64,000 nucleotides of DNA from Candidatus Levyibacteriota bacterium (GTDB lineage Bacteria; Patescibacteriota; Microgenomatia; Levybacterales; UBA12049). The notes beneath the pieces are model-generated. The model searched no databases. It was given only the letters and a program-made list of their open reading frames with translations, and had not been told where the DNA came from. Below, piece after piece: positions 2,573-63,155 of the stretch (positions are counted from its first letter, which is position 1; each line of letters begins with the position of its first letter). The position numbers and the translations under genes were made by a program. Location of the stretch: the NCBI GenBank assembly GCA_049519175.1, contig JBEKQZ010000002.1:134782-198781 (forward strand). Direction: 5' to 3'.

Positions 2573-3496
2573 TTACGCAGTTTGATTAGCGAGCCATTTT
2601 TGTAGTTCCAATGCGGCTGAGCAACCGTAACCGGCGGCGGTAATTGCTTGTTTATAATCTTTATCATGCACATCCCCGGCGACAAAAACGCCTTCTTTGT
2701 TGGTTAAAAAATGAGAATGCACTTTGACAAAACCCTCTTCGTCTAAATCAATGCCGGTGAATTTGGAAGTGTTTGGCAGATGTCCGATGGCGACAAAAAT
2801 TCCGTCAATCGGCATTTCCGATTCTTCGCTTGTCTGGGTATTTTTGAGCTTTACTTTTTCGACTTTCATTTCGCCCAGAACTTCTGTGATCTTTGAATTC
2901 AAAAGAATTTTGATTTTTGGATTTTCCATGACTCTTTTTTGCATGATTTCGGAGGCTCTAAAACTGCCTCGGCGGTGAACAATAATTACATTATTTGCAA
3001 ATTTAGAAAGAACCAAGGCTTCTTCCATCGCACTGTCCCCACCTCCGACCACAATTACATTCTTATTTCTAAAAAACGCCGCGTCACAAGACGCGCAGGA
3101 AGAAACTCCGCGTCCGATTTTTTCCTGTTCGCCCTTAACTCCGAGCCATTTGGTATCGGCACCAGTTGCGATAATCACCGCTTTTGTTTCATAAGTTTTG
3201 TCGCCGACCGAGATTTTGAAAGGTTGAGAGGAAAAATCGGCGGATGTGAAATCATCATCAATAAACTCCGCGCCAAATTTTTCGGCTTGCTTTCGCATAT
3301 TGGCCATTAAATCCGGCCCTTGAATTCCCTCCGGAAACCCGGGAAAGTTTTCAACCAAAGTTGTCAGCATTAATTGCCCGCCCCACGTCACGCCGGCAAT
3401 CACCAGCGTTTTTAAATCCGCGCGGGTCGTGTAAATCGCGGCGGTTAAACCGGCGGGACCAGAGCCAATTATTATTACGTCGTACATTTTATCCAT
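2573..3496 (-). CDS. trxB: thioredoxin-disulfide reductase
   Basis: 307 aa. FAD motif IIIGSGPAG, redox-active CASC and a second NAD(P) GGGDSA motif. Sits immediately downstream of a thioredoxin gene. Confidence 0.9.
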   Translation of the reverse strand: MDKMYDVIIIGSGPAGLTAAIYTTRADLKTLVIAGVTWGGQLMLTTLVENFPGFPEGIQGPDLMANMRKQAEKFGAEFIDDDFTSADFSSQPFKISVGDKTYETKAVIIATGADTKWLGVKGEQEKIGRGVSSCASCDAAFFRNKNVIVVGGGDSAMEEALVLSKFANNVIIVHRRGSFRASEIMQKRVMENPKIKILLNSKITEVLGEMKVEKVKLKNTQTSEESEMPIDGIFVAIGHLPNTSKFTGIDLDEEGFVKVHSHFLTNKEGVFVAGDVHDKDYKQAITAAGYGCSAALELQKWLANQTA

Positions 3497-3661
3497 AAAT
3501 AAATTAGCGCGGGAAGCTTACAAAATTTTCGAGCTTTCATTCGAATTTCCTCATTTCAGGTTCTATCAAAACCTTATGAGCTGAAAGCGAGAAAATTTTC
3601 CGTAAGCGACCTCAGCGCTCCGATTGGAAAATTTTACTCTCGAGCTGAATTTTTTGAAACC

Positions 3662-6138: not shown

Positions 6139-6960
6139 ATGCCAAAAAAAGCTACCACCAAAAAAATTTCAATTCCGGCGATAAAAAAGCCACAGCTTGA
6201 ACTACGAATTAAGCTTCCCCAAAATATCAATTGGAAAAGGTTTTTACCAAAATCTTCAAGTCAGATTTTGGTCATTTTATTAGTCGTTGCCGCTTTTCTA
6301 ATTGGGGTTTTGTTTGACAAAGTTCAATATTTGGAAAAGAATCAGGCTTTAAACTTGCAACCGGTGGCGCAAAATGGTCAAAACGCCCAACCGACCACTG
6401 CTCCGGCCGGACAAAAAGTGAATGTTTCCGCGGGCGACTTACCAATTCAGGGCAATGTCAAAGCCAAAGTCACCATTATCGAGTTTGCCGATTTTCGCTG
6501 TCCGTTCTGCGAACAATTTTTTACCAGCACGATGCCCCAAATTCTTAGTGATTATGTGAATACCGGCAAAGTTAAATTTGCTTTTCGCAATTTTGCTTTC
6601 CTAGGATCGGCTTCTACTGTGGCAGCCGATGCGTCCGAATGCGCCAACGACCAAGGCAAATTCTGGGATTTCTACAACTATCTTTACAAAAATCAGCCGG
6701 CGGAAACCGACACCAGTATGTATAACACCGACACACTTACCCAAGCCGCAGTTTCTTTAGGAATGGATAGCAATACCTTTAGCTCCTGTTTGAATAACAA
6801 AACCGACGACGCCAAAGTCAGCAAAGATATGGCTGACGGACAAGCGGCGGGAGTTTCAGGCACACCAACCTTTTTTATTAATGGCATTTCTTTAGTCGGA
6901 GCACAACCCTACTCTGCTTTTAAAACCATCATCGACCAGGAGCTGGCCAAAGCCAAATAA
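6139..6960 (+). CDS. DsbA-like thiol:disulfide oxidoreductase, membrane-anchored
   Basis: 273 aa. TM helix followed by a thioredoxin-fold domain with a CPFC active site. Confidence 0.75.
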   Translation: MPKKATTKKISIPAIKKPQLELRIKLPQNINWKRFLPKSSSQILVILLVVAAFLIGVLFDKVQYLEKNQALNLQPVAQNGQNAQPTTAPAGQKVNVSAGDLPIQGNVKAKVTIIEFADFRCPFCEQFFTSTMPQILSDYVNTGKVKFAFRNFAFLGSASTVAADASECANDQGKFWDFYNYLYKNQPAETDTSMYNTDTLTQAAVSLGMDSNTFSSCLNNKTDDAKVSKDMADGQAAGVSGTPTFFINGISLVGAQPYSAFKTIIDQELAKAK

Positions 6961-6965
6961 GTTAA

Positions 6966-7820
6966 CTATTCTTGTAATTCAATTTCTTCTCGATAATCAA
7001 TGTCCTCAAGCCCATGTGGATGAACAATTAGATGGCTAACGCCAATTGAGATAAAGTAAGTAATTGTTGAAAGAGTAGCAATATAAAAACTAACCGGAAA
7101 ACGTCCTAAAAGTGAAAGAATTAAACCTCCCCAGGTAAAAAGCAGTGCAAAAATAACAGATAGGCTGATTGCCGACGACGGTTTTCTAGTCAAATGCTGC
7201 GCTGAAGCGGCCGGCGCAATAATTAAGGCAAAAACCAAAAGAATTCCTACCACTTGTATCGCTTCGGCCACAGTTACGGCTAAAAGCAGCATGAAGACAA
7301 TGGAAATAAGCTGCACCGGGACCCCCCTTGCTTCTGCTACTTCCGGATCAATCGATGCAAATAGTAAAGGGCGGAAAATAAATGCTAAAGAAATTAAAAC
7401 CGCTATCCCCAAAACTAAAGATAAAATTACATCCGTTGGTGTTACGCTAAGAATTGAACCGAATAAGACACCTACTGTTTCTGTGGCACTACTGGAATAA
7501 ATGCGCAAAAATAAAACGCCCAAGCCCAGCGCAAAAGCTAATATCATTCCGACTTCGATATCTCTACCTTTAATACGTTTTCCTAAAGCTCCCATTCCAA
7601 ACGCCGCCAAAAGCGTAAAAATAAGCATCCCCACTAACGAACTAATGCCGACTAAAACCGCTCCGGTTGCTCCGGCAAAACCAATGTCTGTTAAAGATTC
7701 CGCCGAAAAAGCTTGCGCCCTTAAGACTACAAAATACCCTAAGACACCGGTAATGATAGCAATTAATGTGCCTGCCAAAAAAGCATTTTGCACAAACTGT
7801 TCATGAAAAAGTTCAAGCAT
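6966..7820 (-). CDS. znuB: metal (Zn/Mn) ABC transporter permease, ABC-3 family
   Basis: 284 aa polytopic membrane protein of the ABC-3 (ZnuB/MntB) type. Lies in an operon with an ATPase, a substrate-binding protein and a Fur-family regulator. Confidence 0.75.
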   Translation of the reverse strand: MLELFHEQFVQNAFLAGTLIAIITGVLGYFVVLRAQAFSAESLTDIGFAGATGAVLVGISSLVGMLIFTLLAAFGMGALGKRIKGRDIEVGMILAFALGLGVLFLRIYSSSATETVGVLFGSILSVTPTDVILSLVLGIAVLISLAFIFRPLLFASIDPEVAEARGVPVQLISIVFMLLLAVTVAEAIQVVGILLVFALIIAPAASAQHLTRKPSSAISLSVIFALLFTWGGLILSLLGRFPVSFYIATLSTITYFISIGVSHLIVHPHGLEDIDYREEIELQE

Positions 7821-12246: not shown

Positions 12247-12525
12247 TTATTTTTTATTCGCCTTGGCGGCGATTTCTCCTTTTAGTTGCTTCAATTTCCA
12301 AAGAAATAGAGCAATTTTATTGTCGGCGTTACTATCGATGACAAATGAATAAGCTTTTTCCAAAACGCTGCGATGATTGGTTTTAGCTAACTTAATCCAC
12401 ATTCCCCTGTTTTTATAATCATTCATTTCTTCCGCCAGCCAAATTCCATACGACTGAAAATCCCGGGAAATATATTTATCTTGAACCGGATTAAAGTTTT
12501 TTAAAATTTGCTGGACCGATTTCAT
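12247..12525 (-). CDS. hypothetical protein
   Basis: 92 aa ORF tightly packed between acyP and the repeat element. Confidence 0.4.
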   Translation of the reverse strand: MKSVQQILKNFNPVQDKYISRDFQSYGIWLAEEMNDYKNRGMWIKLAKTNHRSVLEKAYSFVIDSNADNKIALFLWKLKQLKGEIAAKANKK

Positions 12526-12544: not shown

Positions 12545-12662
12545 GCGCGGGGAGCATTTTGTCAAGATGATGTCTTCGCTAGAGTCGCTTGCGACCGTAT
12601 CCCGAGTTTCGCAGGGACGCTTGCGTTCGAAGACTCATAGAGATCAGAATGCGACCTAAGCG
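12545..12662. repeat. structured repeat family 1, intergenic copy A
   Basis: About 118 bp. Nearly identical (2 mismatches) to 17175-17291 and homologous to 22698-22830. Contains a nested inverted repeat GTCTTCG...CGAAGAC and an internal GTCGCTTGCGAC hairpin. Confidence 0.8.
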
Positions 12663-12672
12663 CTTATTATTT

Positions 12673-13290
12673 CTATTTCGTATTAAATCTGTTCATGGCT
12701 TTTTCTAAGCCCTCTTCCAAGGCATCCTGCACCGCTTTAACCGATTTCTTGACAATTTCCCGCGCCTTTCCCTTTTCACCTTCCGAAAATTCTCCCAAAA
12801 CATAGTTGTCGATCGGTTTTAACCTCGGTTTTAAAATTTTGAATTTTGCATTGTCGTTGCCGATGCCGATTCTAAAACGCCAAAATTTGTCTGTTCCTAA
12901 AAGTTCGATAATTGACTCAACGCCTTTGTGTCCTGCCGACGCGCCGGCAAAACGTATTTTCATACTACCCAGCGGCAAATCAATTTCGTCATGAATTACC
13001 CAAATATCTGCCGGGGAAATTTTATAAAATTGAGCGATTGAATTGACTGCTAAACCTGAACCATTCATATAAGTTAGCGGTTTTGCTAAAAGCACTTTTT
13101 CCGCCTGACTTTTTTTGGGCTGCCAGTTTATTTCGGCGATTTCTGCTTGAAACTTTTTTTCTTCTTTCCATAAAGCTTGCGAGGAAGATTCAAAATCTTT
13201 GAGGAAAGCGTCAACCACCGTAAATCCCAGATTATGTCTGGTTTTGGCGTGTTTGTCTCCGGGGTTACCAAGTCCAACTATCAATTTCAT
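12673..13290 (-). CDS. pth: peptidyl-tRNA hydrolase
   Basis: 205 aa. MKLIVGLGNPG start and HNLGF motif. Confidence 0.9.
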   Translation of the reverse strand: MKLIVGLGNPGDKHAKTRHNLGFTVVDAFLKDFESSSQALWKEEKKFQAEIAEINWQPKKSQAEKVLLAKPLTYMNGSGLAVNSIAQFYKISPADIWVIHDEIDLPLGSMKIRFAGASAGHKGVESIIELLGTDKFWRFRIGIGNDNAKFKILKPRLKPIDNYVLGEFSEGEKGKAREIVKKSVKAVQDALEEGLEKAMNRFNTK

Positions 13291-13426
13291 ACAGGTATTT
13301 TAACACGTTTTGAACAAATTAATCCAAGTGGTTTTTCTATATCAAAATATGTATTAATACACATCAATTGGTCAAAATAATGCTGTTTTGACCAACAAAA
13401 AATAAGCCCTCAAGGTTTGAGTTCGA

Positions 13427-15410: not shown

Positions 15411-15797
15411 ATGGGAGTACAGTTGGAAAAATTCCCCATCGTTACGATTACGAATCATGCAGGAGAAGTAACTATAACCGACTTTACTCCAACAGCAGAA
15501 GATCAACTTATTGGCAGATTTTTTGACGGGAAAACCAACATCCCTCCAACGATTGGAACAATATCTCGATCCGGCATCAGATTAACCATTGGAGGAGATC
15601 CTGAAGACACTCAACCAGAAAGTCGACCTGAACCAAAAGCCATAGTCTTTACCAGGAATATAAATGACATTGTTAATGACGAAATTGAAAAAGAACTTCA
15701 AGCGGAAAGAGATACAAAAAGACCAAGAACTAAACCCGACGGGGATTCTACCAAGTTAAGACCTATTGTTTTCCTTGCTGCTGATACATCTCGATAA
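15411..15797 (+). CDS. hypothetical protein (uncertain, overlaps 3' end of ligase gene)
   Basis: 128 aa ORF. Divergent from the upstream gene; 35 nt convergent overlap with the ligase ORF. Confidence 0.25.
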   Translation: MGVQLEKFPIVTITNHAGEVTITDFTPTAEDQLIGRFFDGKTNIPPTIGTISRSGIRLTIGGDPEDTQPESRPEPKAIVFTRNINDIVNDEIEKELQAERDTKRPRTKPDGDSTKLRPIVFLAADTSR

Positions 15798-17577
15798 GCT
15801 CGGTGACTGAAGTGGCGTCTTCGGGTTTTTTGTCTGCATCCCGGAATGAAACTAAGCGCGGGAAACGAAGCGCATAGCCAGGTTCTGTCTCGGTTTTACC
15901 AGCGGTATGAATCGGCGAACGGGTAATTTCATCCGCCAAAACTTCGATGACAATTTTGGGCTCAATCCAAACTGAAGGGATGATATTTGAACTGACTCTG
16001 GCCGGTTTTTGCTCCAAACTGATTTTATCGGCTCTTTTGTGCACTTCCCTCCACTCTTCATCGGTTAAGCCGGTCCCGATTTTACTGACTGACACAAACT
16101 CGTCCTTTTCTTTATCATAAACCCCCACCAATAACGCTCCCGCGCCAAAAGCGGTCCTCTTCCCTTTGCCGCTGATGTATCCCAAAATGACACAATCAAT
16201 TGTGTCGCTTAATTCACCCGATGAGTGCCTTTTGAGCTTAACCCAATTAAAATTTCTGGCTCCCGCTTCATAGGGACTTTCCAATTTTTTGATGACTAAC
16301 CCTTCCAAACCCTTGGAAATTGCGTCTTCCAAAAGTAGCGACAAAGTTTTGGCGTCTCTGACGGTCTGGTTTTTAGTTCTAATTAAGACGTCATCTTCGG
16401 GCAAAACTTCTTTGAGAATTTCCATTCTCTTGGTCAGCGGCAAATCAATTAGAGACTGCCCGTCTTTGTAGAGAATATCGAACACAAAAGCTTTCAGCGG
16501 CAAACTTTTGGCCATTTCCGCAATGCCGTATTTTCTCCTTCTTTTGGTGGTTTCCTGGAAGGGCAAAAACTCTTCCGACTCCGGGTTGTAAGCTAACGCT
16601 TCGGAATCCAAAATTATAGTTTTTGCTTTAATTTGTTTTCTGACCGCTTCCGTTAACTCCGGAAACATCTGTGTCATCTCCTCTAAGTTTCTGGAGAACA
16701 TTCTGACGATATCGCCATTTTTGTGCAACTGAACTCTGAACCCGTCATATTTATACTGTGCGTCAACCACTTTCATTTTTTCGATCACTTTTTCGGGATT
16801 TGGCAAGCGTTCGCAAAGTTCCGAACGTACCGGATAGCCAACTCTTAACTCTAATTTCTGAACCGCAGCTAAACCACCGTCCCACAAAGTTTTGGCAATT
16901 AAACCTAAATCCGAAGTCCGGTTATATGCTCCCTCCAATAATTTCCGCTGAAATTTATCGCCAAGTTTTGCCGTTGCTAAGGCGTCTAAAATCGTCGGGT
17001 CACCAATTCCCAAACGCGTGTTACCTAAAGGAATTCGCACGAGGTGTTTGGCCGAAATCGGGTCGAGTTGTTTGAGAAGGTCTGATAATAAAATTTGTCT
17101 TTTCTCCACGGTCCCGTTCCCCTTCGTGTTGGCAATTTCCAAAAGAATATTAACCACTTCGCCAACCGTTACGTCGCGGGGAGCATTTTGTCGAGATGAT
17201 GTCTTCGCTAGAGTCGCTTGCGACCGTATCCCGAGTTTCGCAGGGACGCTTGCGTTCGAAGACTCATCGAGATCAGAATGCGACCTAAGCGACTCAGCAA
17301 CTAATCCCATGTCGCCTAATTTATTGAAATCCTTGATTACTGCTTCTTTATTCGAACCGTAAGCCAGCGCTAACGCTTCCGCCACGGTTTTCTCTGCCAT
17401 ACCGATTTCGATTGGCGCAAAAAACGGCGCTAATCTTCCCTGGATTAAATAAACAATCTTTTCAATTTCACTCGCCGGAGTTTTTTTGAATAGCTCCGCC
17501 AGAATCTCAATTAAAGCCAATCTTGAAGAAGTCCCTTCCAGTTTCTCAAAATACTCTGTCAACTCACTAAATTTCAT
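15763..17577 (-). CDS. ATP-dependent DNA ligase (archaeal/eukaryotic Lig1-like)
   Basis: 604 aa. Adenylation motif I KYDGFR and an OB-fold C-terminus. Carries an in-frame copy of repeat family 1 in the N-terminal DNA-binding domain. Confidence 0.85.
   Translation of the reverse strand: MKFSELTEYFEKLEGTSSRLALIEILAELFKKTPASEIEKIVYLIQGRLAPFFAPIEIGMAEKTVAEALALAYGSNKEAVIKDFNKLGDMGLVAESLRSHSDLDESSNASVPAKLGIRSQATLAKTSSRQNAPRDVTVGEVVNILLEIANTKGNGTVEKRQILLSDLLKQLDPISAKHLVRIPLGNTRLGIGDPTILDALATAKLGDKFQRKLLEGAYNRTSDLGLIAKTLWDGGLAAVQKLELRVGYPVRSELCERLPNPEKVIEKMKVVDAQYKYDGFRVQLHKNGDIVRMFSRNLEEMTQMFPELTEAVRKQIKAKTIILDSEALAYNPESEEFLPFQETTKRRRKYGIAEMAKSLPLKAFVFDILYKDGQSLIDLPLTKRMEILKEVLPEDDVLIRTKNQTVRDAKTLSLLLEDAISKGLEGLVIKKLESPYEAGARNFNWVKLKRHSSGELSDTIDCVILGYISGKGKRTAFGAGALLVGVYDKEKDEFVSVSKIGTGLTDEEWREVHKRADKISLEQKPARVSSNIIPSVWIEPKIVIEVLADEITRSPIHTAGKTETEPGYALRFPRLVSFRDADKKPEDATSVTELIEMYQQQGKQ
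17175..17291. repeat. structured repeat family 1, copy B, in-frame inside DNA ligase ORF
   Basis: Near-identical to 12545-12662. The ligase ORF reads through it as ...LVAESLRSHSDLDESSNASVPAKLGIRSQATLAKTSSRQNAPRDVT... Confidence 0.8.
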
Positions 17578-22697: not shown

Positions 22698-22830
22698 GCG
22701 CGGCGAGCTTTCTTGTGAGAAATGTTTTCACTAGAGTCGTAAGACCGTATCCCGAGGACGGATAGAATCCGGCCGCAGGGACGCTTGCGTTTGAAAACTT
22801 TCGAGCCAAGAATGCGAGCAACAACGCTTA
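22698..22830. repeat. structured repeat family 1, divergent copy C
   Basis: Shares blocks GCGCGG.GAGC, CTAGAGTCG, GACCGTATCCCGAG, GCAGGGACGCTTGCGTT and AAGAATGCGA with copies A and B. Has an about 18-bp insertion. Abuts the stop codon of the glycosyltransferase gene. Confidence 0.65.
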
Positions 22831-22832
22831 GC

Positions 22833-24008
22833 TTACTTATTTTTTACTTTTGAACTTACAAAGTCTTGAATTTCTTTTTTAAAACGCTCTTTGGAAAACT
22901 TTTTCGCTTGCTCAATGCAATCTTTCGAGTTGAATTTTGTGTTTTCGAACTTTTTGACTGCTTCGATTAAACCGTTTACCGAATAGTCGTTGAACAAAAC
23001 TCCGGTTTTGCCGTTCACGACTGTTTCTTTATATCCGCCGCCGTTAAAAGCAATCACTGGCGTCCCACAAAACATCGCTTCAACCGGCGTAATCCCAAAA
23101 TCTTCGTCCTGCGATAAAGCCAAAAAGCCCCTTGCTCCTTCGTAGAGCTTTGCTAATTCTTCATCACTGACTTGTCCCAAAAATTCCACTTTGCCCTGAG
23201 ATTTATTCACTAATTTGTCGTGCTCAAAATAATATCCGGCCGGCGACCCAGCGATTTTTAATTTGAATCCAGACTTTAAGGCTGCGTCAACCGCTAACTC
23301 CAAGCCTTTGGCGCCGACAATTCTAGAAACAATAAAATAATAAGGGGTGGCACCGGAGGAAGGGCTCCCGACAGCGCGCGGATCAGTGAGTCGTGAATGA
23401 GCACTGGCGGGAGGGAAACCGGTGACAGGACCCCGATTGAATCCAACCGGCGGATAAATTACCGTTGCATCACGTCGATAAAACTTTTTGATTCTGGCGG
23501 CGACCTCTTTGGAATTGGCAATAAAATAGTCAACTTTTTGCGCCTGTTTAAAATCATAAAGCCGTATGCAATGCCCGACTATTAAAGCGTAAACCTTAAC
23601 CGGCCAGTACTTTTGGAAATTGACCGAAGTTGTATAACCATACAACCACCTTGGCGGCGTATGGCAATAACAAATTTCTGTGAATTTATCATTTTCCTTT
23701 TTAAAACCTTTGGCAATATACCAGCTGGACGAGGAAATGACTAAATCGTATTTTGCCAAATTAAAGCTACCCCAAATCAGCGGGGTTAAAAAGCGTAAAG
23801 GGCTATAAAGTTTGTTTTTAAAAAAGGGTATATATTGTACCCAAGACGTAATGATTTTCCTATCTTTAAAGTGCTTATAAGCTTGGGATTTCTTGGCACA
23901 AAAGGCAGTGTAAATCGGCGCGTCTGGAAAAATCTCGGTTAGAGTTTCCAACACCCGTTCTGCCCCGCCGTACTCTTTAATATAATCATGGACTAATGCT
24001 ACTTTCAT
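22833..24008 (-). CDS. glycosyltransferase family 4 (GT-B fold)
   Basis: 391 aa. C-terminal EDFGITPVEAMFCGTPVIA motif of GT4. Carries an in-frame copy of repeat family 2. Confidence 0.8.
   Translation of the reverse strand: MKVALVHDYIKEYGGAERVLETLTEIFPDAPIYTAFCAKKSQAYKHFKDRKIITSWVQYIPFFKNKLYSPLRFLTPLIWGSFNLAKYDLVISSSSWYIAKGFKKENDKFTEICYCHTPPRWLYGYTTSVNFQKYWPVKVYALIVGHCIRLYDFKQAQKVDYFIANSKEVAARIKKFYRRDATVIYPPVGFNRGPVTGFPPASAHSRLTDPRAVGSPSSGATPYYFIVSRIVGAKGLELAVDAALKSGFKLKIAGSPAGYYFEHDKLVNKSQGKVEFLGQVSDEELAKLYEGARGFLALSQDEDFGITPVEAMFCGTPVIAFNGGGYKETVVNGKTGVLFNDYSVNGLIEAVKKFENTKFNSKDCIEQAKKFSKERFKKEIQDFVSSKVKNK
23344..23434. repeat. structured repeat family 2, copy in-frame inside glycosyltransferase ORF
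   Basis: About 90 bp, GGGGTGGCACCGG...GACAGGACCCC. Homologous to 39967-40056 and to the shortened 29764-29816. Translated in the ORF as ...GFPPASAHSRLTDPRAVGSPSSGATP... Confidence 0.8.
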
Positions 24009-28563: not shown

Positions 28564-31121
<2,558 letters not shown>

Positions 31122-31920: not shown

Positions 31921-31994
31921 TACCAGGGGTGGGGGTCGAACCCACGACCTCAGCGTTATGAATGCTGTGCTCTAACCAACTGAGCTACCCTGGC
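31921..31994 (-). tRNA. tRNA-Met(CAU) (elongator Met or lysidine-type Ile2)
   Basis: Manual cloverleaf of 74 nt: acceptor GCCAGGG/CCCTGGT with G1-U72, D-arm GCTC-AGTTGGTTA-GAGC, anticodon loop TTCATAA, T-arm GTGGG-TTCGACC-CCCAC. No CCA encoded. Confidence 0.8.
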
Positions 31995-32717: not shown

Positions 32718-33112
32718 TATGTCAACAAGAATCTAATAATGACTATCTTTAAGCAATTTTATTGACTATTAGCTTTGATTTTGCTATTATGTTTTTACGC
32801 GCGGGGTAGTGTACAGTGCACATGAGGCTCAAATGGGCCATTTTGATAGTAATATTAAGATAGTACTCAGCTATATCGGTGAAACCCCATCTATTTATTA
32901 TTTAGGGCAATACCGAGGGAAGATCCAATAATTTATTGGGGACCCGTAGAGACTACACGCTGAGGTCGCCACTGGCGACAAGATATAGTCCGACACTCTG
33001 GGTAACCGGAGAAACAGAAAGCATAATCTCATAGGCTAGGCGCAACTCCTAGCCCCGCAACAAATCCCTACAACTTGACTTATAGTTCTTCTAGAGCTAC
33101 AATTTCCCTGCT

Positions 33113-39966: not shown

Positions 39967-40056
39967 GGGGTGGCACGGGTAGAAGGGCCCCCGACAGCGC
40001 GCAGTCAGTGAATCGTGAACGAGCACTGGCGGGAGGGACACCCGGGACAGGACCCC
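39967..40056. repeat. structured repeat family 2, intergenic copy
   Basis: GGGGTGGCACGGGTAGAAGGGCCCCCGACAGCGCGCAGTCAGTGAATCGTGAACGAGCACTGGCGGGAGGGACACCCGGGACAGGACCCC. About 88% identical to 23344-23434. Contains the palindromic GACAGCGCGCAGTC core. Confidence 0.8.
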
Positions 40057-42928: not shown

Positions 42929-42968
42929 ATCTTGCTTCTGGCACCTTTTAGCTTTATTTTATGCTGAT

Positions 42969-43013
42969 GCCGTAAAACGCTAGATATAGTGCCACAAAAA
43001 TAATATGGCACTA
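42969..43013. promoter_or_regulatory. inverted repeat resembling a pair of NrdR boxes upstream of nrdR-nrdJ
   Basis: Arms TAGATATAGTGCC (42971-42983) and GGCACTACATCTA (42997-43009), 12/13 complementary with a 13-bp spacer. Each arm matches the NrdR-box consensus core CACwAtATaTwG at 9-11 of 12 positions. Confidence 0.45.
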
Positions 43014-43192
43014 CATCTACCCTGTCAACTATTAACATATATATCAAAATATGTCAAGTTATATTTTAGCTTCAGTTTCTTGATAAATAATCTGTTAGCG
43101 AAAAAACGAACAAAAAAAAGTTTTATTTTAAGAGTTTCGGTTTAAGAAGCAGCATACAAAAATTATTCTATTTATAAGGATTGCGTAGTGAT

Positions 43193-47083: not shown

Positions 47084-48117
47084 TAGTCCGTGAATTCCTG
47101 GCAAAACATTTCGCCGTAAATCCCCCCGTTGACCACACCAATTCCCACTTTATGAAAATCCGTTGACAAAATATTGGCTTTGTGCCCCGGACTTTGCATC
47201 AGACCTTTCATCGCCAAGTCGACACTTGGCGCTAGCGCCAAATTTTCGCCAGCAAAGTTAAAAGCGATGTTGGCCTGTGCCATCCGGTCAAAAGGCGAAA
47301 GCCCGTTTTGCGAATTATGCGAAAAATAGCCGTTTTTAAACATATCTTCACAATGCGCCGTGCCAACGTCGGTTAAACTTTGTGAAAAAGACAGCGCCGC
47401 GATCTTTCGCGCAGTTCTTTCACTATTCACCATTTGCAGCATTTGCTGTTCGGCGCTTTTGTCAATACTGATGGCGGTAGTTTTAAAATTGAGGTTTATT
47501 ATTTCGTTACTTTGCGGCTCAATGGTTAAAAAAGACAACGTGTCATTAACCGCCCCGCCGAAAATATCATTCCAGTCTTTATTAAATCCTTGGGTATTGG
47601 CAACCAGAACGCTGCCGATTTTGGCGTTTAGAATTGACTGTTTGAGAAAAAGTGAAAACGGCAGAGCAATAATTAAACTTAAAATAAACGCTGACAGTAG
47701 AAGGCCCGAACAAAACCCCGGAATAATCCCCAACAGTTTGCTGACTATTTTTACCGGGCCAACGCTCGGAATTAAGAATCGGAAAAGCGAAACGTTGGCA
47801 ATCAGAATTTTGAGAATAAGGTTAACAATGATTTCTACCAAAACCGCGACGACAAAGAAACCGATGGCGTTGGCAAACCCGTGCGAAATCGGCAAGAATT
47901 TAATCAGAAGCGTTGCGATACGGCCATAAAAAGTGATGCCGACCAGAAACGACAGCGCAAAACTTAAAAAATCAATTGCCGCCACCAAAACGCCCAGAGC
48001 AAATCCTTCGACGCAGTAGAAAAATAAAATCACGAGCACAAAAATATCTATCCAGTTAAGCCCTAAACCCGGAACAGATAAAGAAGTAATCGTTGCCAGA
48101 AACGAAGAGACGTTCAT
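47083..48117 (-). CDS. CvpA-family membrane protein fused to a C-terminal CAP/SCP (YkwD-like) domain
   Basis: 344 aa. N-terminal multi-TM region like colicin V production protein. C-terminus GHKANILSTDFHKVGIGVV matches the SCP/PR-1-like motif. Confidence 0.55.
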   Translation of the reverse strand: MNVSSFLATITSLSVPGLGLNWIDIFVLVILFFYCVEGFALGVLVAAIDFLSFALSFLVGITFYGRIATLLIKFLPISHGFANAIGFFVVAVLVEIIVNLILKILIANVSLFRFLIPSVGPVKIVSKLLGIIPGFCSGLLLSAFILSLIIALPFSLFLKQSILNAKIGSVLVANTQGFNKDWNDIFGGAVNDTLSFLTIEPQSNEIINLNFKTTAISIDKSAEQQMLQMVNSERTARKIAALSFSQSLTDVGTAHCEDMFKNGYFSHNSQNGLSPFDRMAQANIAFNFAGENLALAPSVDLAMKGLMQSPGHKANILSTDFHKVGIGVVNGGIYGEMFCQEFTD

Positions 48118-48198: not shown

Positions 48199-50385
48199 AT
48201 GAAGCTAAATTTACCGAAAACTTTGCAAAAAAGGTTGAACTTAAAAGAATTGACGCATAAGAAAGTTATCGCAATTTGTGTTCTTTTGCTGTTTGCTTTT
48301 TCTTTTTATTATTTTATTTTGCGTGACTTACCTTTGCCGACAAAGCTCAGTAGTTCCTCCAATCCCCAATCGACGCTAATTTATGACCGTAACGGCAAAC
48401 TGTTATACAACATCTATGACAAGAAGAATCAAACTTTTGTCCCGTTATCCAGCATCCCTAAATACATGCAGGAAGCCACCATTGCGATTGAAGATAAAAG
48501 CTTTTATCAACACGGGGCAATTGACCTGCGCGGCATTGCCCGTGCCGCTGTTTCGATTGCTTTGCATCAGCAAATTCAGGGCGGTTCAACGCTAACCCAA
48601 CAATTGGTAAAAAATAGCCTTTTAACCCAACAGCAAACCATTTTGCGAAAAATTAAGGAAGTAATTCTGGCTTTTGCCACCGAAGTTGTTTATTCCAAAG
48701 GTCAAATCTTAGAAATGTATTTAAATCAAACTCCCTATGGCGGAACTTCCTACGGCGTTGAGGCGGCCAGCGAAACTTATTTTGGCAAACATGCTAAAGA
48801 TTTGGATTTAGCCCAGTCCGCACTTTTAGCCGGACTGCCGCAGGCGCCGACAGAATATTCTCCCTTTGGCGCTCACCCGGAAGAAGGCAAAGACCGCCAA
48901 GTTGAGGTTTTACAAGCAATGGAAGACCAAGGCTATATTACTAAAGACCAGGAGCAAAAAGCCGAAAAAGAGGACTTGCAATATAAAAAGTTTACCAACG
49001 ATATCCAAGCCCCGCATTTTGTTTTATACATTAAAGATTTATTAATTGCCCAGTATGGGCAGAATTTGGTTGAAGAAGGCGGCTTAAAAGTTACTACCAG
49101 CCTGGATTTGGATATTCAAAACTATGCCCAACAAGCTGTCGCCGACGAAGTTAACAAATTGCCGGTCTATTATCACGTCACCAACGGCGCCGCTTTGGTC
49201 ACCGATCCCGCTACCGGCGAAATTTTGGCGATGGTCGGCAGTAAAGATTATTTCGATAACACTATTGACGGCAATGTCAACATTACTACCGCTTTACGGC
49301 AACCCGGCTCATCCATTAAACCAATCAATTACGCCGTCGGACTTTTGAACGGTTACAACGCCGCCACCACTTTTATCGACCAACCGATTTGCTTCCCCAA
49401 CCAAGGCGGACAAAACTATTGCCCGGTCGATTACGACGGAAAATGGCATGGCTTGGTGGAAATGCGTTACGCTTTGGGCAATTCGTTTAATATCCCGGCG
49501 GTCAAAATGCTGGAGCTAAATGGTGTTAACGCAATGGTCGCAACCGCTTCGGCAATGGGCATTACCAGTTTTACCGATCCGCAGAAATACGGTTTGTCTT
49601 TAACGCTTGGGGGAGCCGAAGTCAAAATGGTCGATATGGCCACCGCTTTCGGCGTTTTTGCAAATTCGGGCTACAGGATTGATTTACATCCGATTTTAAA
49701 AGTAACCGACAAAACTGGCAAAGTGCTGGAACAATACACGCCGCCCTTAAGCCCTATTTTTGGCCAGAAAGTGCTACCGGACGGAGTCGCCTTTATCATT
49801 TCCGATATTTTGGCCGATAATAACGCCAGGCTTGCGGAATTTGGCGACAACTCGGAGCTAAAAATCCCCGGCCAAACCGTTTCGGTTAAAACCGGCACGA
49901 CCAACGACTTCCGCGACAACTGGACCATCGGTTATACTCCCTCTGTTTTGGTCGCCGCCTGGGTCGGCAACGACGACAACTCACAAATGAGCGGACTGGT
50001 TTCCGGTATTACCGGCGCGGCGCCGATTTGGAACGACATTATGTCGCACTTACTAAAAGACCGCACGCCGGAACCGATGTCTAGACCACCCGACATTATC
50101 CAAAAGTCATTCTGTTCGGACACGGGACTACTCCCGGGAGGAGCTAATCCCTGCCCAACCCGCTTTGAATATATTCTTAAAGGCACCGAGAGCTCAAGAG
50201 GGCAAGTTACGACTGGTGATACTCAAGTGGACAAAACGACTCAAGATTTACCCGCCAAAGGGCAAACCGATAACCTGGAAACCAAAACGGAAACCGTCTA
50301 TACCGATCCGACCGGCGATAAGTTTTGCATGACTTGCCCGCATCCAGAACTAATGCCTAGTCCAACGCCGACTCCTGCTCCTTAA
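48199..50385 (+). CDS. class A penicillin-binding protein (PBP1A; transglycosylase + transpeptidase)
   Basis: 728 aa. N-terminal TM, GT51 motifs (EDKSFYQHGAID, RKIKE), and transpeptidase SSIKP (SxxK) and KTGT. Confidence 0.85.
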   Translation: MKLNLPKTLQKRLNLKELTHKKVIAICVLLLFAFSFYYFILRDLPLPTKLSSSSNPQSTLIYDRNGKLLYNIYDKKNQTFVPLSSIPKYMQEATIAIEDKSFYQHGAIDLRGIARAAVSIALHQQIQGGSTLTQQLVKNSLLTQQQTILRKIKEVILAFATEVVYSKGQILEMYLNQTPYGGTSYGVEAASETYFGKHAKDLDLAQSALLAGLPQAPTEYSPFGAHPEEGKDRQVEVLQAMEDQGYITKDQEQKAEKEDLQYKKFTNDIQAPHFVLYIKDLLIAQYGQNLVEEGGLKVTTSLDLDIQNYAQQAVADEVNKLPVYYHVTNGAALVTDPATGEILAMVGSKDYFDNTIDGNVNITTALRQPGSSIKPINYAVGLLNGYNAATTFIDQPICFPNQGGQNYCPVDYDGKWHGLVEMRYALGNSFNIPAVKMLELNGVNAMVATASAMGITSFTDPQKYGLSLTLGGAEVKMVDMATAFGVFANSGYRIDLHPILKVTDKTGKVLEQYTPPLSPIFGQKVLPDGVAFIISDILADNNARLAEFGDNSELKIPGQTVSVKTGTTNDFRDNWTIGYTPSVLVAAWVGNDDNSQMSGLVSGITGAAPIWNDIMSHLLKDRTPEPMSRPPDIIQKSFCSDTGLLPGGANPCPTRFEYILKGTESSRGQVTTGDTQVDKTTQDLPAKGQTDNLETKTETVYTDPTGDKFCMTCPHPELMPSPTPTPAP

Positions 50386-50445: not shown

Positions 50446-52761
50446 ATGAAAATCTTGATTTCTTTGATTAACGCTATTATTTTGCTTTTAACCGCTATCG
50501 GCGATGCTGTGTTTTTCTGTCTAAAACTTGTCTTAAGAATAATTTTCACCCTACTCAAATTTATTCTTCGTTTGGTTGCCGCCATTTTCAGATTTGTCTT
50601 TAAAATAATCGGCATAAGCTTATCACGTAGCCAGGCGGCCAAAAGAAATATCAGTAATCAAATTAAATTGGCGCGCTTTAAGCTTCTACTGTCTGTCAAA
50701 AGACTAAAGCGCCAGTTTCGACCAAAGAAAAAAGCCAAACCGAGCAAGAAAAAAGTGGTCAAAGAAGCGGTCATTACCTTCTTCCCTGCGCCAAAACATT
50801 ATCGCCTGAAACTAAAATATTTTCTGGTTGGCTTTTTGTTCTGCGTTATTTTTGTGCTGATTCCCTTTGCGATGTATTCATTCTTAATGAGCCTACCCAA
50901 CCCTAAGCTTTTAACCGAAAGAGCCTTTCCGCAAACTACCAAAATTTTTGACCGCAATGGCACGCTGTTATACCAAATTTACGCCAATGAAAACCGCACT
51001 CTGGTGCCGTTAAACTCTATTCCGAAAAATTTGATTAACGCCACCATTGCGATTGAAGATAAAGATTTTTATACCAATCCGGGCTTTGACATTACCGGCA
51101 TTTTGCGGGCGGCTGTCGCCGATTTTTCCGGCCAGCCAATTCAGGGCGGCTCCAGCATTACCCAACAATTGATAAAATCAACGCTTTTGACTCCCGAAGT
51201 AAGTATTACCCGCAAGATTAAAGAGATTGTGCTGGCTTTTTGGGCGGAAAGAATTTACAGCAAAAACCAGATTTTGGAAATGTATTTTAATCAAGTTCCT
51301 TACGGCGGCACCGCTTGGGGGATTGAAGCGGCCTGTGAAACTTATTTTGGCAAAAATGTTAAAGATTTGGATTTGGCGCAAAGTGCTTTTTTGGCCGGCA
51401 TGCCCCAAGCTCCCACCACTTATTCTCCCTACGGTAACAACCCAACTCTTTGGAAACAACGTCAAAAAGAAGTGCTCGACAAAATGTTCCAGCTTGGTTA
51501 TATTTCGCAAAAACAGGATAATCAAGCTCTAAAAGAAACTCTGACTTTTCAGCCGCCGCAAATTCCCATTTACGCCCCGCATTTTGTAATGTATGTTAAA
51601 GATTTGCTGGTGCAAAGATATGGACTGGCCATGGTCGAAAAAGGCGGTTTGAATGTTACCACCAGTCTGGATTTAAACCTGCAGCAGGACGTTCAGCAAA
51701 TTGTCAGCGACGAAGTTAACAATGACGCTTATTTAAACCTGACTAATGGCGCTGCTTTGGTCACCAACCCTAGTAACGGTGACATTTTGGCGATGGTTGG
51801 CAGCGCAAACTACGATAACGCCAACGGCGGTAATGTTAATTTGACGACCGCCTTAAGACAGCCGGGCTCTTCAATCAAAGTGGTTACTTATGCCGCCGCT
51901 TTATCGGACGGTTTTACCGCCGCCAGCATTTTGGATGATTCCCCAATCACCTACAATATTCCCGGCTCAGCCCCTTATTCACCGGTCAATTATGATGGCA
52001 AATTTCACGGCAAAGTCCCTTTAAGGTTTGCTTTTGCTAATTCGTTTAATGTCCCGGCGGTTAAAACCCTGCAAAAAATCGGCATTCCGGCGATGGTTAG
52101 TATGGCCAAGCAAATGGGTATCACCACTTGGGGAGATCCAAGCCAATACGGACTGTCTTTAACTCTTGGTGCCGCCGAAGTCAAAATGACCGATATGGCC
52201 ACTGCTTATGGCACCGTTGCCAACCTTGGCAAAAAAGTGGATTTGGATCCGATTTTAAAAGTTTCCAATTATGACGGCAGTGTTTCTTACCAAAAACAAG
52301 CAGAGTTACCAAATCTAGTGCTTGACCCAGGCGTCGCCTATATTATTTCCAATATCTTGGCCGATAATAACGCGCGCTCTTTGGAATTTGGCTTAAATTC
52401 TCCCCTAAATATTCCTAATCACACTGTTTCGGTTAAAACCGGCACTTCGGATAATAAACGGGATAACTGGACGATCGGCTTTACGCCGCAGGATTTAGTG
52501 GCTGTTTGGGTTGGCAATAACGATAACTCACCGATGAGTCAAACGCTGGCTTCCGGCATTACCGGCGCGGCGCCAATCTGGAATAAAATTATGACTTTGC
52601 TTTTGGGCAATGCTTCCAACGCTCCGGAGCCGATACCCGACGATGTTGTGATGAAAAAATGTCAGGGAAGAAATGAATATTTTATTACAGGAACCGAAAA
52701 TACGTCCGATTGTAATTTTATCGCCACCCCCAGCGCAACGATGATACCACAAGCTAACTAA
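50446..52761 (+). CDS. class A penicillin-binding protein (second PBP1A paralog)
   Basis: 771 aa. Long basic N-terminal extension plus TM. GT51 motifs (EDKDFYTNPGFD), SSIKV and KTGTS. Confidence 0.85.
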   Translation: MKILISLINAIILLLTAIGDAVFFCLKLVLRIIFTLLKFILRLVAAIFRFVFKIIGISLSRSQAAKRNISNQIKLARFKLLLSVKRLKRQFRPKKKAKPSKKKVVKEAVITFFPAPKHYRLKLKYFLVGFLFCVIFVLIPFAMYSFLMSLPNPKLLTERAFPQTTKIFDRNGTLLYQIYANENRTLVPLNSIPKNLINATIAIEDKDFYTNPGFDITGILRAAVADFSGQPIQGGSSITQQLIKSTLLTPEVSITRKIKEIVLAFWAERIYSKNQILEMYFNQVPYGGTAWGIEAACETYFGKNVKDLDLAQSAFLAGMPQAPTTYSPYGNNPTLWKQRQKEVLDKMFQLGYISQKQDNQALKETLTFQPPQIPIYAPHFVMYVKDLLVQRYGLAMVEKGGLNVTTSLDLNLQQDVQQIVSDEVNNDAYLNLTNGAALVTNPSNGDILAMVGSANYDNANGGNVNLTTALRQPGSSIKVVTYAAALSDGFTAASILDDSPITYNIPGSAPYSPVNYDGKFHGKVPLRFAFANSFNVPAVKTLQKIGIPAMVSMAKQMGITTWGDPSQYGLSLTLGAAEVKMTDMATAYGTVANLGKKVDLDPILKVSNYDGSVSYQKQAELPNLVLDPGVAYIISNILADNNARSLEFGLNSPLNIPNHTVSVKTGTSDNKRDNWTIGFTPQDLVAVWVGNNDNSPMSQTLASGITGAAPIWNKIMTLLLGNASNAPEPIPDDVVMKKCQGRNEYFITGTENTSDCNFIATPSATMIPQAN

Positions 52762-62895: not shown

Positions 62896-63155
62896 AAAGC
62901 CCTCCGCCAGCGAAGCCTTTCGACTCCTACCGCCCTTTCGGACGATAACTTTAGAGGTGCTCTGACGAAGAGCTTAATACCTCTAAAGTTTTTTAGCCAT
63001 GCTCACATTGCTGCAAGTTTAGGCAATTAACGCTAGTATAGCACACCAAAATTTATAGTAAATTCACCTCTCATAACATATAATTAGACCGTGGTGCTAA
63101 TGAAAAACATTCTTATCCTAGAAGACAATCTTATTGTTTTGTCTAAATATTTGGT

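Follow-up and report, generated by a model that had tools for sequence, protein, structure and literature searches.

The window, i.e. the whole 64,000-nt stretch of Candidatus Levyibacteriota DNA that was analysed and not a single feature of it, contains an intact ATP-dependent DNA ligase gene, inside which lies one copy of a structured repeat whose family was named E1. The segments 17175-17291, within the gene, and 12546-12662, in an intergenic region, are direct repeats of 117 nt with 2 mismatches (0 matches in 100 dinucleotide-preserving shuffles), and the near-identical pair reported in a preliminary description of this DNA was thereby confirmed by repeat comparison. With the covarying outermost base pair counted, the full spans are 17174-17292 and 12545-12663. 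Only these two copies had been described; the window contains two further E1 members, four in total, one of them a variant (E1b) found by a covariance model built later, and additionally three copies of a second structured repeat family unrelated to E1, named E2. In the ligase the strand of E1 is gene-sense, i.e. the minus strand of the window. The features are the following.

15763..17577, minus strand: host gene of E1, ATP-dependent DNA ligase of 604 aa, open reading frame (ORF) intact, 100% match to the ligase of a Candidatus Levyibacteriota metagenome-assembled genome (MAG)
17174..17292, minus strand: E1 copy B, in frame in the ATP-dependent DNA ligase gene, covariance-model score 144 bits, outermost pair T...A covarying
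12545..12663, minus strand: E1 copy A, intergenic, 136 bits by the covariance model
22698..22827, minus strand: E1 copy C, a diverged subtype, intergenic, 111 bits by the covariance model
3507..3618, minus strand: E1b, intergenic, termini and outer stems as in E1 (GCGCTGAGGTCGCTTAC...GTAAGCTTCCCGCGC), core different
22833..24008, minus strand: host gene of E2, GT4/GT1 glycosyltransferase of 391 aa (Pfam)
23344..23434, minus strand: E2 copy, in frame in the glycosyltransferase ORF, in an interdomain linker, peptide RGPVTGFPPASAHSRLTDPRAVGSPSSGATP
39967..40056, minus strand: E2 copy, intergenic, with two co-directional neighbour genes
29764..29818, minus strand: short form of E2, directly upstream of tgt

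Copy A occupies the whole spacer between the peptidyl-tRNA hydrolase gene (12673..13290; Pept_tRNA_hydro) and a 92-aa ORF (12247..12525), shares 98% identity with copy B, and is interrupted by a TGA when read in the frame open in the ligase. Copy B has the family consensus at both positions where the two differ, and copy A is the derived one. Copy C is located in the spacer between the glycosyltransferase gene and fpg (Fapy_DNA_glyco), ~23 nt 5′ of the fpg start codon; compared with copies A and B one of its hairpins is shortened and an extra P3 hairpin is added, and its stems have changed in a compensatory manner (from GUCUUCG/CGAAGAC to GUUUUCA/UGAAAAC). The copy C subtype was also found upstream of fpg at locus L050, and the E1b type in frame in the 6-phosphogluconate-dehydrogenase-like (6PGDH-like) gene of L053. 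The E2 copy of the glycosyltransferase lies at the linker of the GT4 and GT1 domains and is missing from the orthologues of L001 and L002.

Both differences between copies A and B fall at adenines of the intergenic copy on the plus strand of the window, as in the template and variable repeats of a diversity-generating retroelement (DGR). On the coding strand, however, the base of the intergenic copy at these positions is T and not A, and the direction is wrong, since it was copy A that changed from the consensus. Many other copies occur in unrelated genes, and the insert-bearing ligase was recovered on three contigs, with similar inserts from independent samples. The DGR reading and that of an assembly artefact, to which we give next to no probability, were rejected on these grounds.

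The insert in the DNA ligase

The ligase, which contains the Pfam domains DNA_ligase_A_N/M/C (PF04675/PF01068/PF04679), has an ORF that remains open through E1 with no stop codon (...AES-LRSHSDLDESSNASVPAKLGIRSQATLAKTSSRQNAPR-DVTVGEV...), as first described, residues ~96-135 being encoded by E1; one predicted peptide of the E1-bearing ligase is SHSDLDESSNASVPAK. The insert is positioned in the loop that joins two helices of the N-terminal DNA-binding domain. In the AlphaFold2 model this domain was confident (predicted local distance difference test, pLDDT, 80-95), and residues 104-130 formed a coil with pLDDT <50, flanked by confident helices at residues 90-101 and 138-149; the rest of the model was poor and was left unused. 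In the ligase, E1 is probably transcribed and translated, adding a disordered loop of ~38 aa to the surface of the DNA-binding domain, for which the indirect evidence is that every intragenic copy is open and keeps the frame; the loop is best read as a tolerated passenger and not as a functional domain.

Nearly all of the 120 closest ligases were 574-580 aa in length, with 10-14 aa in the loop against 38 aa in the window ligase, and ~110 of them were without the E1 block. About 39 extra residues had been proposed initially, of which the in-frame translation of the block stands; the net gain over the orthologues, however, is only ~26-28 aa, since ~10-12 of the residues that normally form this loop are absent. 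With the loop left aside, the window ligase shares 92-94% identity with ligases that have an empty site, and only 83% with P0031, which has E1 in the same loop and whose own nearest relative (93%) is in turn empty. Judged from these alignments, the ligase insert is lineage-specific, because the nearest relatives lack the block.

In total, E1 occupies this loop in four ligase lineages (window, L001, L041 and L046), with slightly differing borders (GLVAES|E1|DVTV, GLAAYELAGLA|E1|ALTV, GKVAEA|E1|ALSV). This recurrence would fit a segment of ancestral ligase sequence or a protein-level module from which the intergenic copies derive, and the preliminary description had named ligases of other lineages with the same segment as the finding that would speak for such an origin. 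Ligases of this kind do exist, but they are not sister lineages, and many empty-site ligases lie between them; carriers are less similar to each other (83%) than to empty-site relatives (93-94%). Moreover, almost the same nucleotide sequence is found in genes of unrelated proteins and in spacers, the frame of the peptide differs between hosts, and E1 of the window and L041 is 98% identical when the flanking ligase is 76% identical. The ancestral reading, rejected by this distribution of E1, has a negligible probability. The resemblance to Rickettsia palindromic elements (RPEs) stands, because E1 is also present in ~15 unrelated protein families and in spacers, and the carrier ligases are separated by ligases with empty sites.

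A fifth ligase, P0053 of locus L002, has E2 at that loop, in the same reading frame as the E2 copy of the window glycosyltransferase. In the ligase of L046 (E1 copy at 7207-7336), an intein-like insertion was also observed downstream, after the KYDGFR active-site motif; protein P0056 of this ligase lineage (919 aa) contains intein and homing-endonuclease Pfam domains.

Consensus fold and covariation

Thirty-eight distinct E1 copies from Patescibacteria contigs were aligned, and a consensus structure was obtained by RNAalifold on the gene-sense strand. It comprises a terminal stem (GCGC/GCGC plus GG/CC), helices P1 and P2, and a three-way junction with P3 (UCCC/GGGA, extension hairpin optional) and P4; the nested inverted repeats noticed earlier in the ligase copy correspond to real helices of this structure, P2 and P4. 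Compensatory changes on both sides were found for 20 of the 34 consensus pairs, standard-paired cells made up 96.1% (81.1% in shuffles), and the covariation score was 0.409 (0.145 in shuffles), a value reached by 0 of 500 shuffles. Slid-partner controls gave at most 56% pairing. E1 folds, and the covariation is strong. No Rfam 15 match to E1 was obtained at the gathering threshold over the whole window, or at E-values up to 10 around two of the copies. Of the marks of a structured non-coding RNA family, E1 has the covariation-supported fold and no match to a curated Rfam 15 family.

The outermost terminal pair of E1 covaries (GCGC/GCGC, TCGC/GCGA, CCGC/GCGG, GTGC/GCAC, GAGC/GCTC), and terminal inverted repeats are present as an imperfect covarying stem, GCGCUGAGG / CCCCGCGC. 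Asymmetric termini, 5′ (G)CGCUGAGGUCG and 3′ CUCCCCGCG(C), are common to all members of the superfamily, which are ~95-150 nt in size; they pair together and close a long stem. Read on the sense strand, most P4 loops are GCAA, UUCG, UACG or UGCG, and the only loop type that would be canonical on the antisense strand is UUAC. Counted by canonical GNRA and UNCG loops, the balance is ~20 to 3 for the sense strand.

Host genes, orientation and reuse of sites

An exact-pattern scan with the E1 core (AACGCAAGCGNCCCTGCG...CTCGGG) was made over GTDB species representatives and metagenomes, and it returned 8 true E1 copies from the former and 37 true loci from the latter. The GTDB copies came from Patescibacteria MAGs, a Curtissbacteria MAG and a MAG that bears the label “Gammaproteobacteria” and has a composition like that of the candidate phyla radiation (CPR). 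Well inside long ORFs, 26 distinct copies were identified in ~15 protein families; all of these were open, stop-free and frame-preserving, and none was antisense. Intergenic or contig-edge copies (13 distinct strong, 6 divergent) were all oriented as the neighbouring genes. The sites taken up are spacers within operons and permissive loops or linkers in a range of housekeeping proteins. The hosts confirmed by Pfam were ligase, 6PGDH-like protein, DnaX, MurD, another Mur ligase, phosphoribosyl pyrophosphate (PRPP) synthetase, SufC-type ABC ATPase, RecF/SMC_N, leucyl-tRNA synthetase (LeuRS), pyridine-nucleotide-disulphide oxidoreductase, a glycosyltransferase, DUF72, ComEC and a PHP-associated protein, with one further host being a membrane protein with no Pfam match.

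In most ORFs E1 is entered as CTG AGG TCG (L-R-S) and left as ...CCC CGC (P-R), with one entry as GCT GAG GTC. For the middle part, two or more reading frames are in use, set by the hairpin lengths (ESSNASVPA...LGIRS, ...PRDTV, or SLRTQASLRP), which therefore indicates selection on nucleotides and not on the peptide. A protein-level census with the E1 peptide (41 aa) was uninformative, as the query is too short and the cluster representatives are without the insert: a word-indexed search returned no candidate, and an exhaustive HMMER search against 1.84 billion representatives gave one marginal hit.

As the paired termini of E1 bring both junctions together, removal after transcription, as a tiny intron-like or self-excising RNA, or bypass by the ribosome could be envisaged, which would leave the ligase without an extra loop. 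The lineage is moreover intron-rich, with a group I intron in a tRNA gene of the window, and the 5′ terminus of E1 has an 11-mer in common with this intron. However, efficient removal should put two thirds of the insertions out of frame, when in fact all 26 distinct intragenic copies keep the frame and are free of stops, whereas copy A, which is intergenic, shows a TGA in the equivalent frame. No E1 copy was seen dividing a gene into two ORFs. There was also no similarity to Rfam intron or ribozyme models with E-values up to 10. Because all 26 distinct intragenic copies keep the frame, excision at the RNA level is very unlikely. Membership in the group I or group II introns or in a self-cleaving ribozyme class was likewise rejected, the frame being always kept and no catalytic core being recognised by the Rfam models.

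The strict gene-sense orientation of E1 is significant, and it holds in spacers too, which are free of reading-frame constraint. The sense strand of every copy is also the G-rich strand, an apparent exception (L006) being situated at a switch of the skew. Because the sense strand is always G-rich, transcription and replication are not separable as the cause of the orientation bias.

Identities between E1 copies at the same site were 0.70-0.98, against 0.37-0.62 at third codon positions of the hosts, and were only a few points lower without the 23 positions forced by the search pattern. The host proteins were often less conserved than their E1: in DnaX of L018 and L039, E1 was 84% and the protein 53% identical. 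This conservation could result from re-invasion or gene conversion, or from selection in place.

Equivalent sites were found to be occupied by E1 or by E2 in different genomes in three cases, i.e. the ligase loop (E1 in the window, E2 in L002), a DnaX linker (E1 in L038, E2 in L028), and the spacer upstream of tgt (E1 in L026, E2 in the window). In the spacer between the glycosyltransferase gene and fpg, three syntenic genomes had three different structured elements, in that the window has E1 of subtype C, L001 (4999-5094) an E1b-like element, and L002 (~3395-3510) an unrelated hairpin, CCCCACACAAAAC...GTTTGTACGGGG. Among 69 parsed homologues at the 6PGDH-like site, 28 had a basal spacer of 23-28 aa and 41 had 33-88 aa, with insertions of at least four core types, among them E1 (6), E2 (4), E1b (7) and a fourth type (4), and in addition composites (e.g. 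E1 followed by the 3′ half of E1b) and short AT-rich remnants. Here the E1 insertion is a clean addition of ~40 aa. As read from these site comparisons, single permissive sites have been entered time and again by different cores, which nest and decay. At 3843-3960 of L005, a complete E2 is joined directly to an E1 5′ terminus (GCGCTGAGGTC) and a small hairpin, without the E1 3′ terminus, a composite suggesting insertion of one family into the other.

Several of these properties would be accounted for if E1 were a cis-acting RNA module of benefit to the host, i.e. a structure that stabilises or processes mRNA or a site for an RNA-binding protein, maintained in the spacers of operons and tolerated within genes, with spread secondary to function. 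The covariation of E1 is on a par with that of bona fide structured RNA, the mRNA strand has GNRA and UUCG-type tetraloops and A-rich unpaired segments, the sense orientation is strict even in spacers, E1 is better conserved than the synonymous sites of its hosts, and several genomes have a copy shortly upstream of fpg. However, three related genomes each have a different, unrelated element in the glycosyltransferase-fpg spacer, the majority of orthologous sites are without any, and the AT-rich remnants and nested composites at the 6PGDH-like site resemble invasion and decay rather than maintenance. There is also no tie to one gene class, the ~15 host proteins being unrelated, and no match to an Rfam family. 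We consider such a module quite unlikely as the primary nature of E1.

Mobility and relation to known elements

The more likely explanation is that E1 represents one of the core types within a superfamily of palindromic elements that are selfish, structure-dependent and apparently mobile, similar in behaviour to those of Rickettsia and translated as a disordered loop. Such elements, small and non-autonomous, would invade transcribed DNA in Microgenomates-type Patescibacteria (CPR) and would persist only in spacers and in permissive loops and linkers, and only with an open frame, as purifying selection on the host would leave only the harmless insertions. Spread might take place as, or via, a single-stranded form of the sense strand, either DNA of the lagging-strand template, as with IS200/IS605 and REP-type (repetitive extragenic palindromic) elements, or the transcript; the part recognised would be the terminal stem and subterminal sequence, and elements would be turned over by nesting and decay.

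Several observations weigh against this explanation. The E1 of the ligase and the E2 of the glycosyltransferase appear to replace ~10-12 native residues rather than insert cleanly. No target-site duplication, direct repeat or conserved flanking motif was found in the flanks of the 38 copies, and there was no transposase or autonomous partner in the 414 kb of sampled contigs, a genome-wide search for transposase not being part of the analysis. In these contigs, E1 5′ termini without a nearby 3′ terminus occurred only in tRNA-Met genes and in the group I intron. Viral contigs scanned for E1, E2 and the shared termini gave 0 matches, and no autonomous insertion sequence (IS) with E1 ends was found in the 414 kb or in the viral contigs, whole genomes being outside the sample. 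The invariance of 23 core nucleotides was partly imposed by the search pattern, and selection in place for a host function could instead underlie the strong conservation and the one or more compensated changes between copies that share a host site. The strand assignment is not clean, as in 35 of the 38 copies the folding energy is lower for the antisense strand; the counts of G-U against A-C pairs (28 to 21, two invariant pairs left out) are inconclusive as to the strand, and only the tetraloop identities favour the sense strand.

The closest parallel is found in the Rickettsia palindromic elements RPE-1 to RPE-10 (Ogata et al. 2000, 2002; via PMC10969869, PMC1166351). As characterised in the accounts we draw on, these are, like E1 and E2, repeats that measure 100-150 nt, fold in a hairpin-type manner and reside in reduced genomes, present as several families per genome in many copies in spacers and ORFs, inserted in frame in unrelated housekeeping genes where they add a peptide in permissive regions, and those accounts name no known transposase (PMC10969869, PMC1166351). 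E1 has the copy number, fold and placement of this functional class, in that four E1-type and three E2 copies with a covarying fold occur in 64 kb, and the in-frame insertions lie in unrelated genes and are missing from orthologues; the RPE-like behaviour initially proposed, i.e. a structured repeat in frame in working genes, is thus supported by orthologues, fold and related genomes. The likeness is one of description, and the host belongs to the Patescibacteria instead of the Alphaproteobacteria. In E1, unlike in the RPEs, a three-way junction, RNA-like tetraloops and covariation are documented, the orientation is strictly gene-sense, and the encoded peptide is not conserved, its frame shifting within the element. 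The E1/E2 superfamily differs further in having different cores with the same termini and in the reuse of one site by different families. Because the host belongs to Candidatus Levyibacteriota, membership by descent in the Rickettsia RPE families is very unlikely.

REPINs are extragenic and made of short REP palindromes. The REP/REPIN elements associated with RAYT (REP-associated tyrosine transposase) and the IS200/IS605-derived elements resemble E1 in their strand-specific hairpins, asymmetric ends, structure kept by compensatory change, and lack of target-site duplication; in these, an orientation bias is expected from single-stranded DNA at the replication fork, and the one-strand orientation of E1 is compatible with this family. 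E1 differs in being regularly intragenic, in having no conserved flanking tetranucleotide, and in that no RAYT or TnpA gene was found in the 414 kb, the search not being genome-wide.

Intragenic MITEs (miniature transposable elements with inverted repeats), such as ERIC/RU, Coxiella QMITE1/2 and the Anabaena MITEs, are, as E1 and E2, small and non-autonomous with terminal inverted repeats, and are sometimes fused in frame to host ORFs and transcribed with their neighbours (PMC2759123, PMC5896051, PMC10969869). Target-site duplications or direct repeats, however, accompany these MITEs, which for the most part change the ends of genes or affect hypothetical proteins. E1 and E2 are situated in the middle of essential enzymes, in a single orientation, and E1 has the terminal inverted repeats of MITEs but, over 38 copies, no duplication.

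The yeast mitochondrial GC-rich “byp” hairpins, inteins, and group I and II introns are removed or bypassed, and the frame need not hold. Like E1 and E2 they are selfish insertions in essential coding sequence, from which E1 and E2 differ by an always open frame and by the lack of any intron, intein or ribozyme signature.

To our knowledge, protein-coding palindromes have so far been held peculiar to Rickettsia, and no literature on such elements in CPR/Patescibacteria was found in the searchable, incomplete literature. The same phenomenon in the CPR, which are unrelated to Rickettsia but also have tiny genomes, suggests recurrence where genomes are reduced; the CPR elements differ in their RNA-grade covariation and in their presence in ligase, DnaX, MurD, LeuRS and other essential enzymes. 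The consensus, covariance model and host sites form a concrete set for asking how such elements move and whether they create new protein loops, and bear on whether unexplained insertions and length variation in CPR proteins are footprints of elements. In annotation, GC-rich inserts of 30-45 aa in CPR proteins may be element-derived.

The most far-reaching interpretation would be that E1, E1b and E2 represent an undescribed kind of bacterial mobile element, in which a compact fold (a three-way junction closed by conserved termini) propagates on the mRNA or the lagging-template strand without a classical transposase signature, swaps cores cassette-like between fixed termini, and prefers sites already held by relatives. 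We regard this as unlikely, albeit conceivable; the fold of the element might then have an activity of its own, e.g. ribozyme-like or guide-like.

Among the other features of the window, a group I intron (Rfam RF00028 at 32820-33012) apparently splits the anticodon loop of an initiator-like tRNA(CAU) gene (5′ CGCGGGGTAG..., 3′ ...CCCCGCAACA) at 32799-33062 on the plus strand, a tRNA that ARAGORN did not call. Group I introns in tRNA genes of Patescibacteria are discussed in a 2025 preprint (10.1101/2025.07.03.662931). The 11-mer CGCTGAGGTCG of the E1 5′ terminus occurs also at 31944-31956 (minus strand) and 32957-32969 (plus strand), ~0.03 chance occurrences being expected per window. The former lies in an elongator tRNA-Met gene, covering the 3′ strand of the anticodon stem, the variable loop and the start of the T-stem, as also in the tRNA-Met of L003, and the latter is inside the group I intron. 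Kinship of E1 with the group I intron or with tRNA was rejected, only the 11-mer being in common with no model-level similarity.

A LOOT RNA (Rfam RF03000, 81 bits), the sequence of which is unrelated to E1 and E2, was identified at 62912-63025 on the minus strand. The strongest excess folding energy in the window (z ~-4.5 for GC content) was in the 264-nt gap between minus-strand ORFs at 42929-43192, which had no Rfam match with E-values up to 1 and may be an undescribed RNA or another element. Four 120-nt segments (13276-13395, 976-1095, 6181-6300 and 47176-47295) were likewise more stably folded than predicted by their GC content (z ≤ -3). Two adjacent plus-strand ORFs at 48199-50385 and 50446-52761 (728 and 771 aa) share ~70-76% DNA identity over long stretches, and are therefore read as tandem paralogues.

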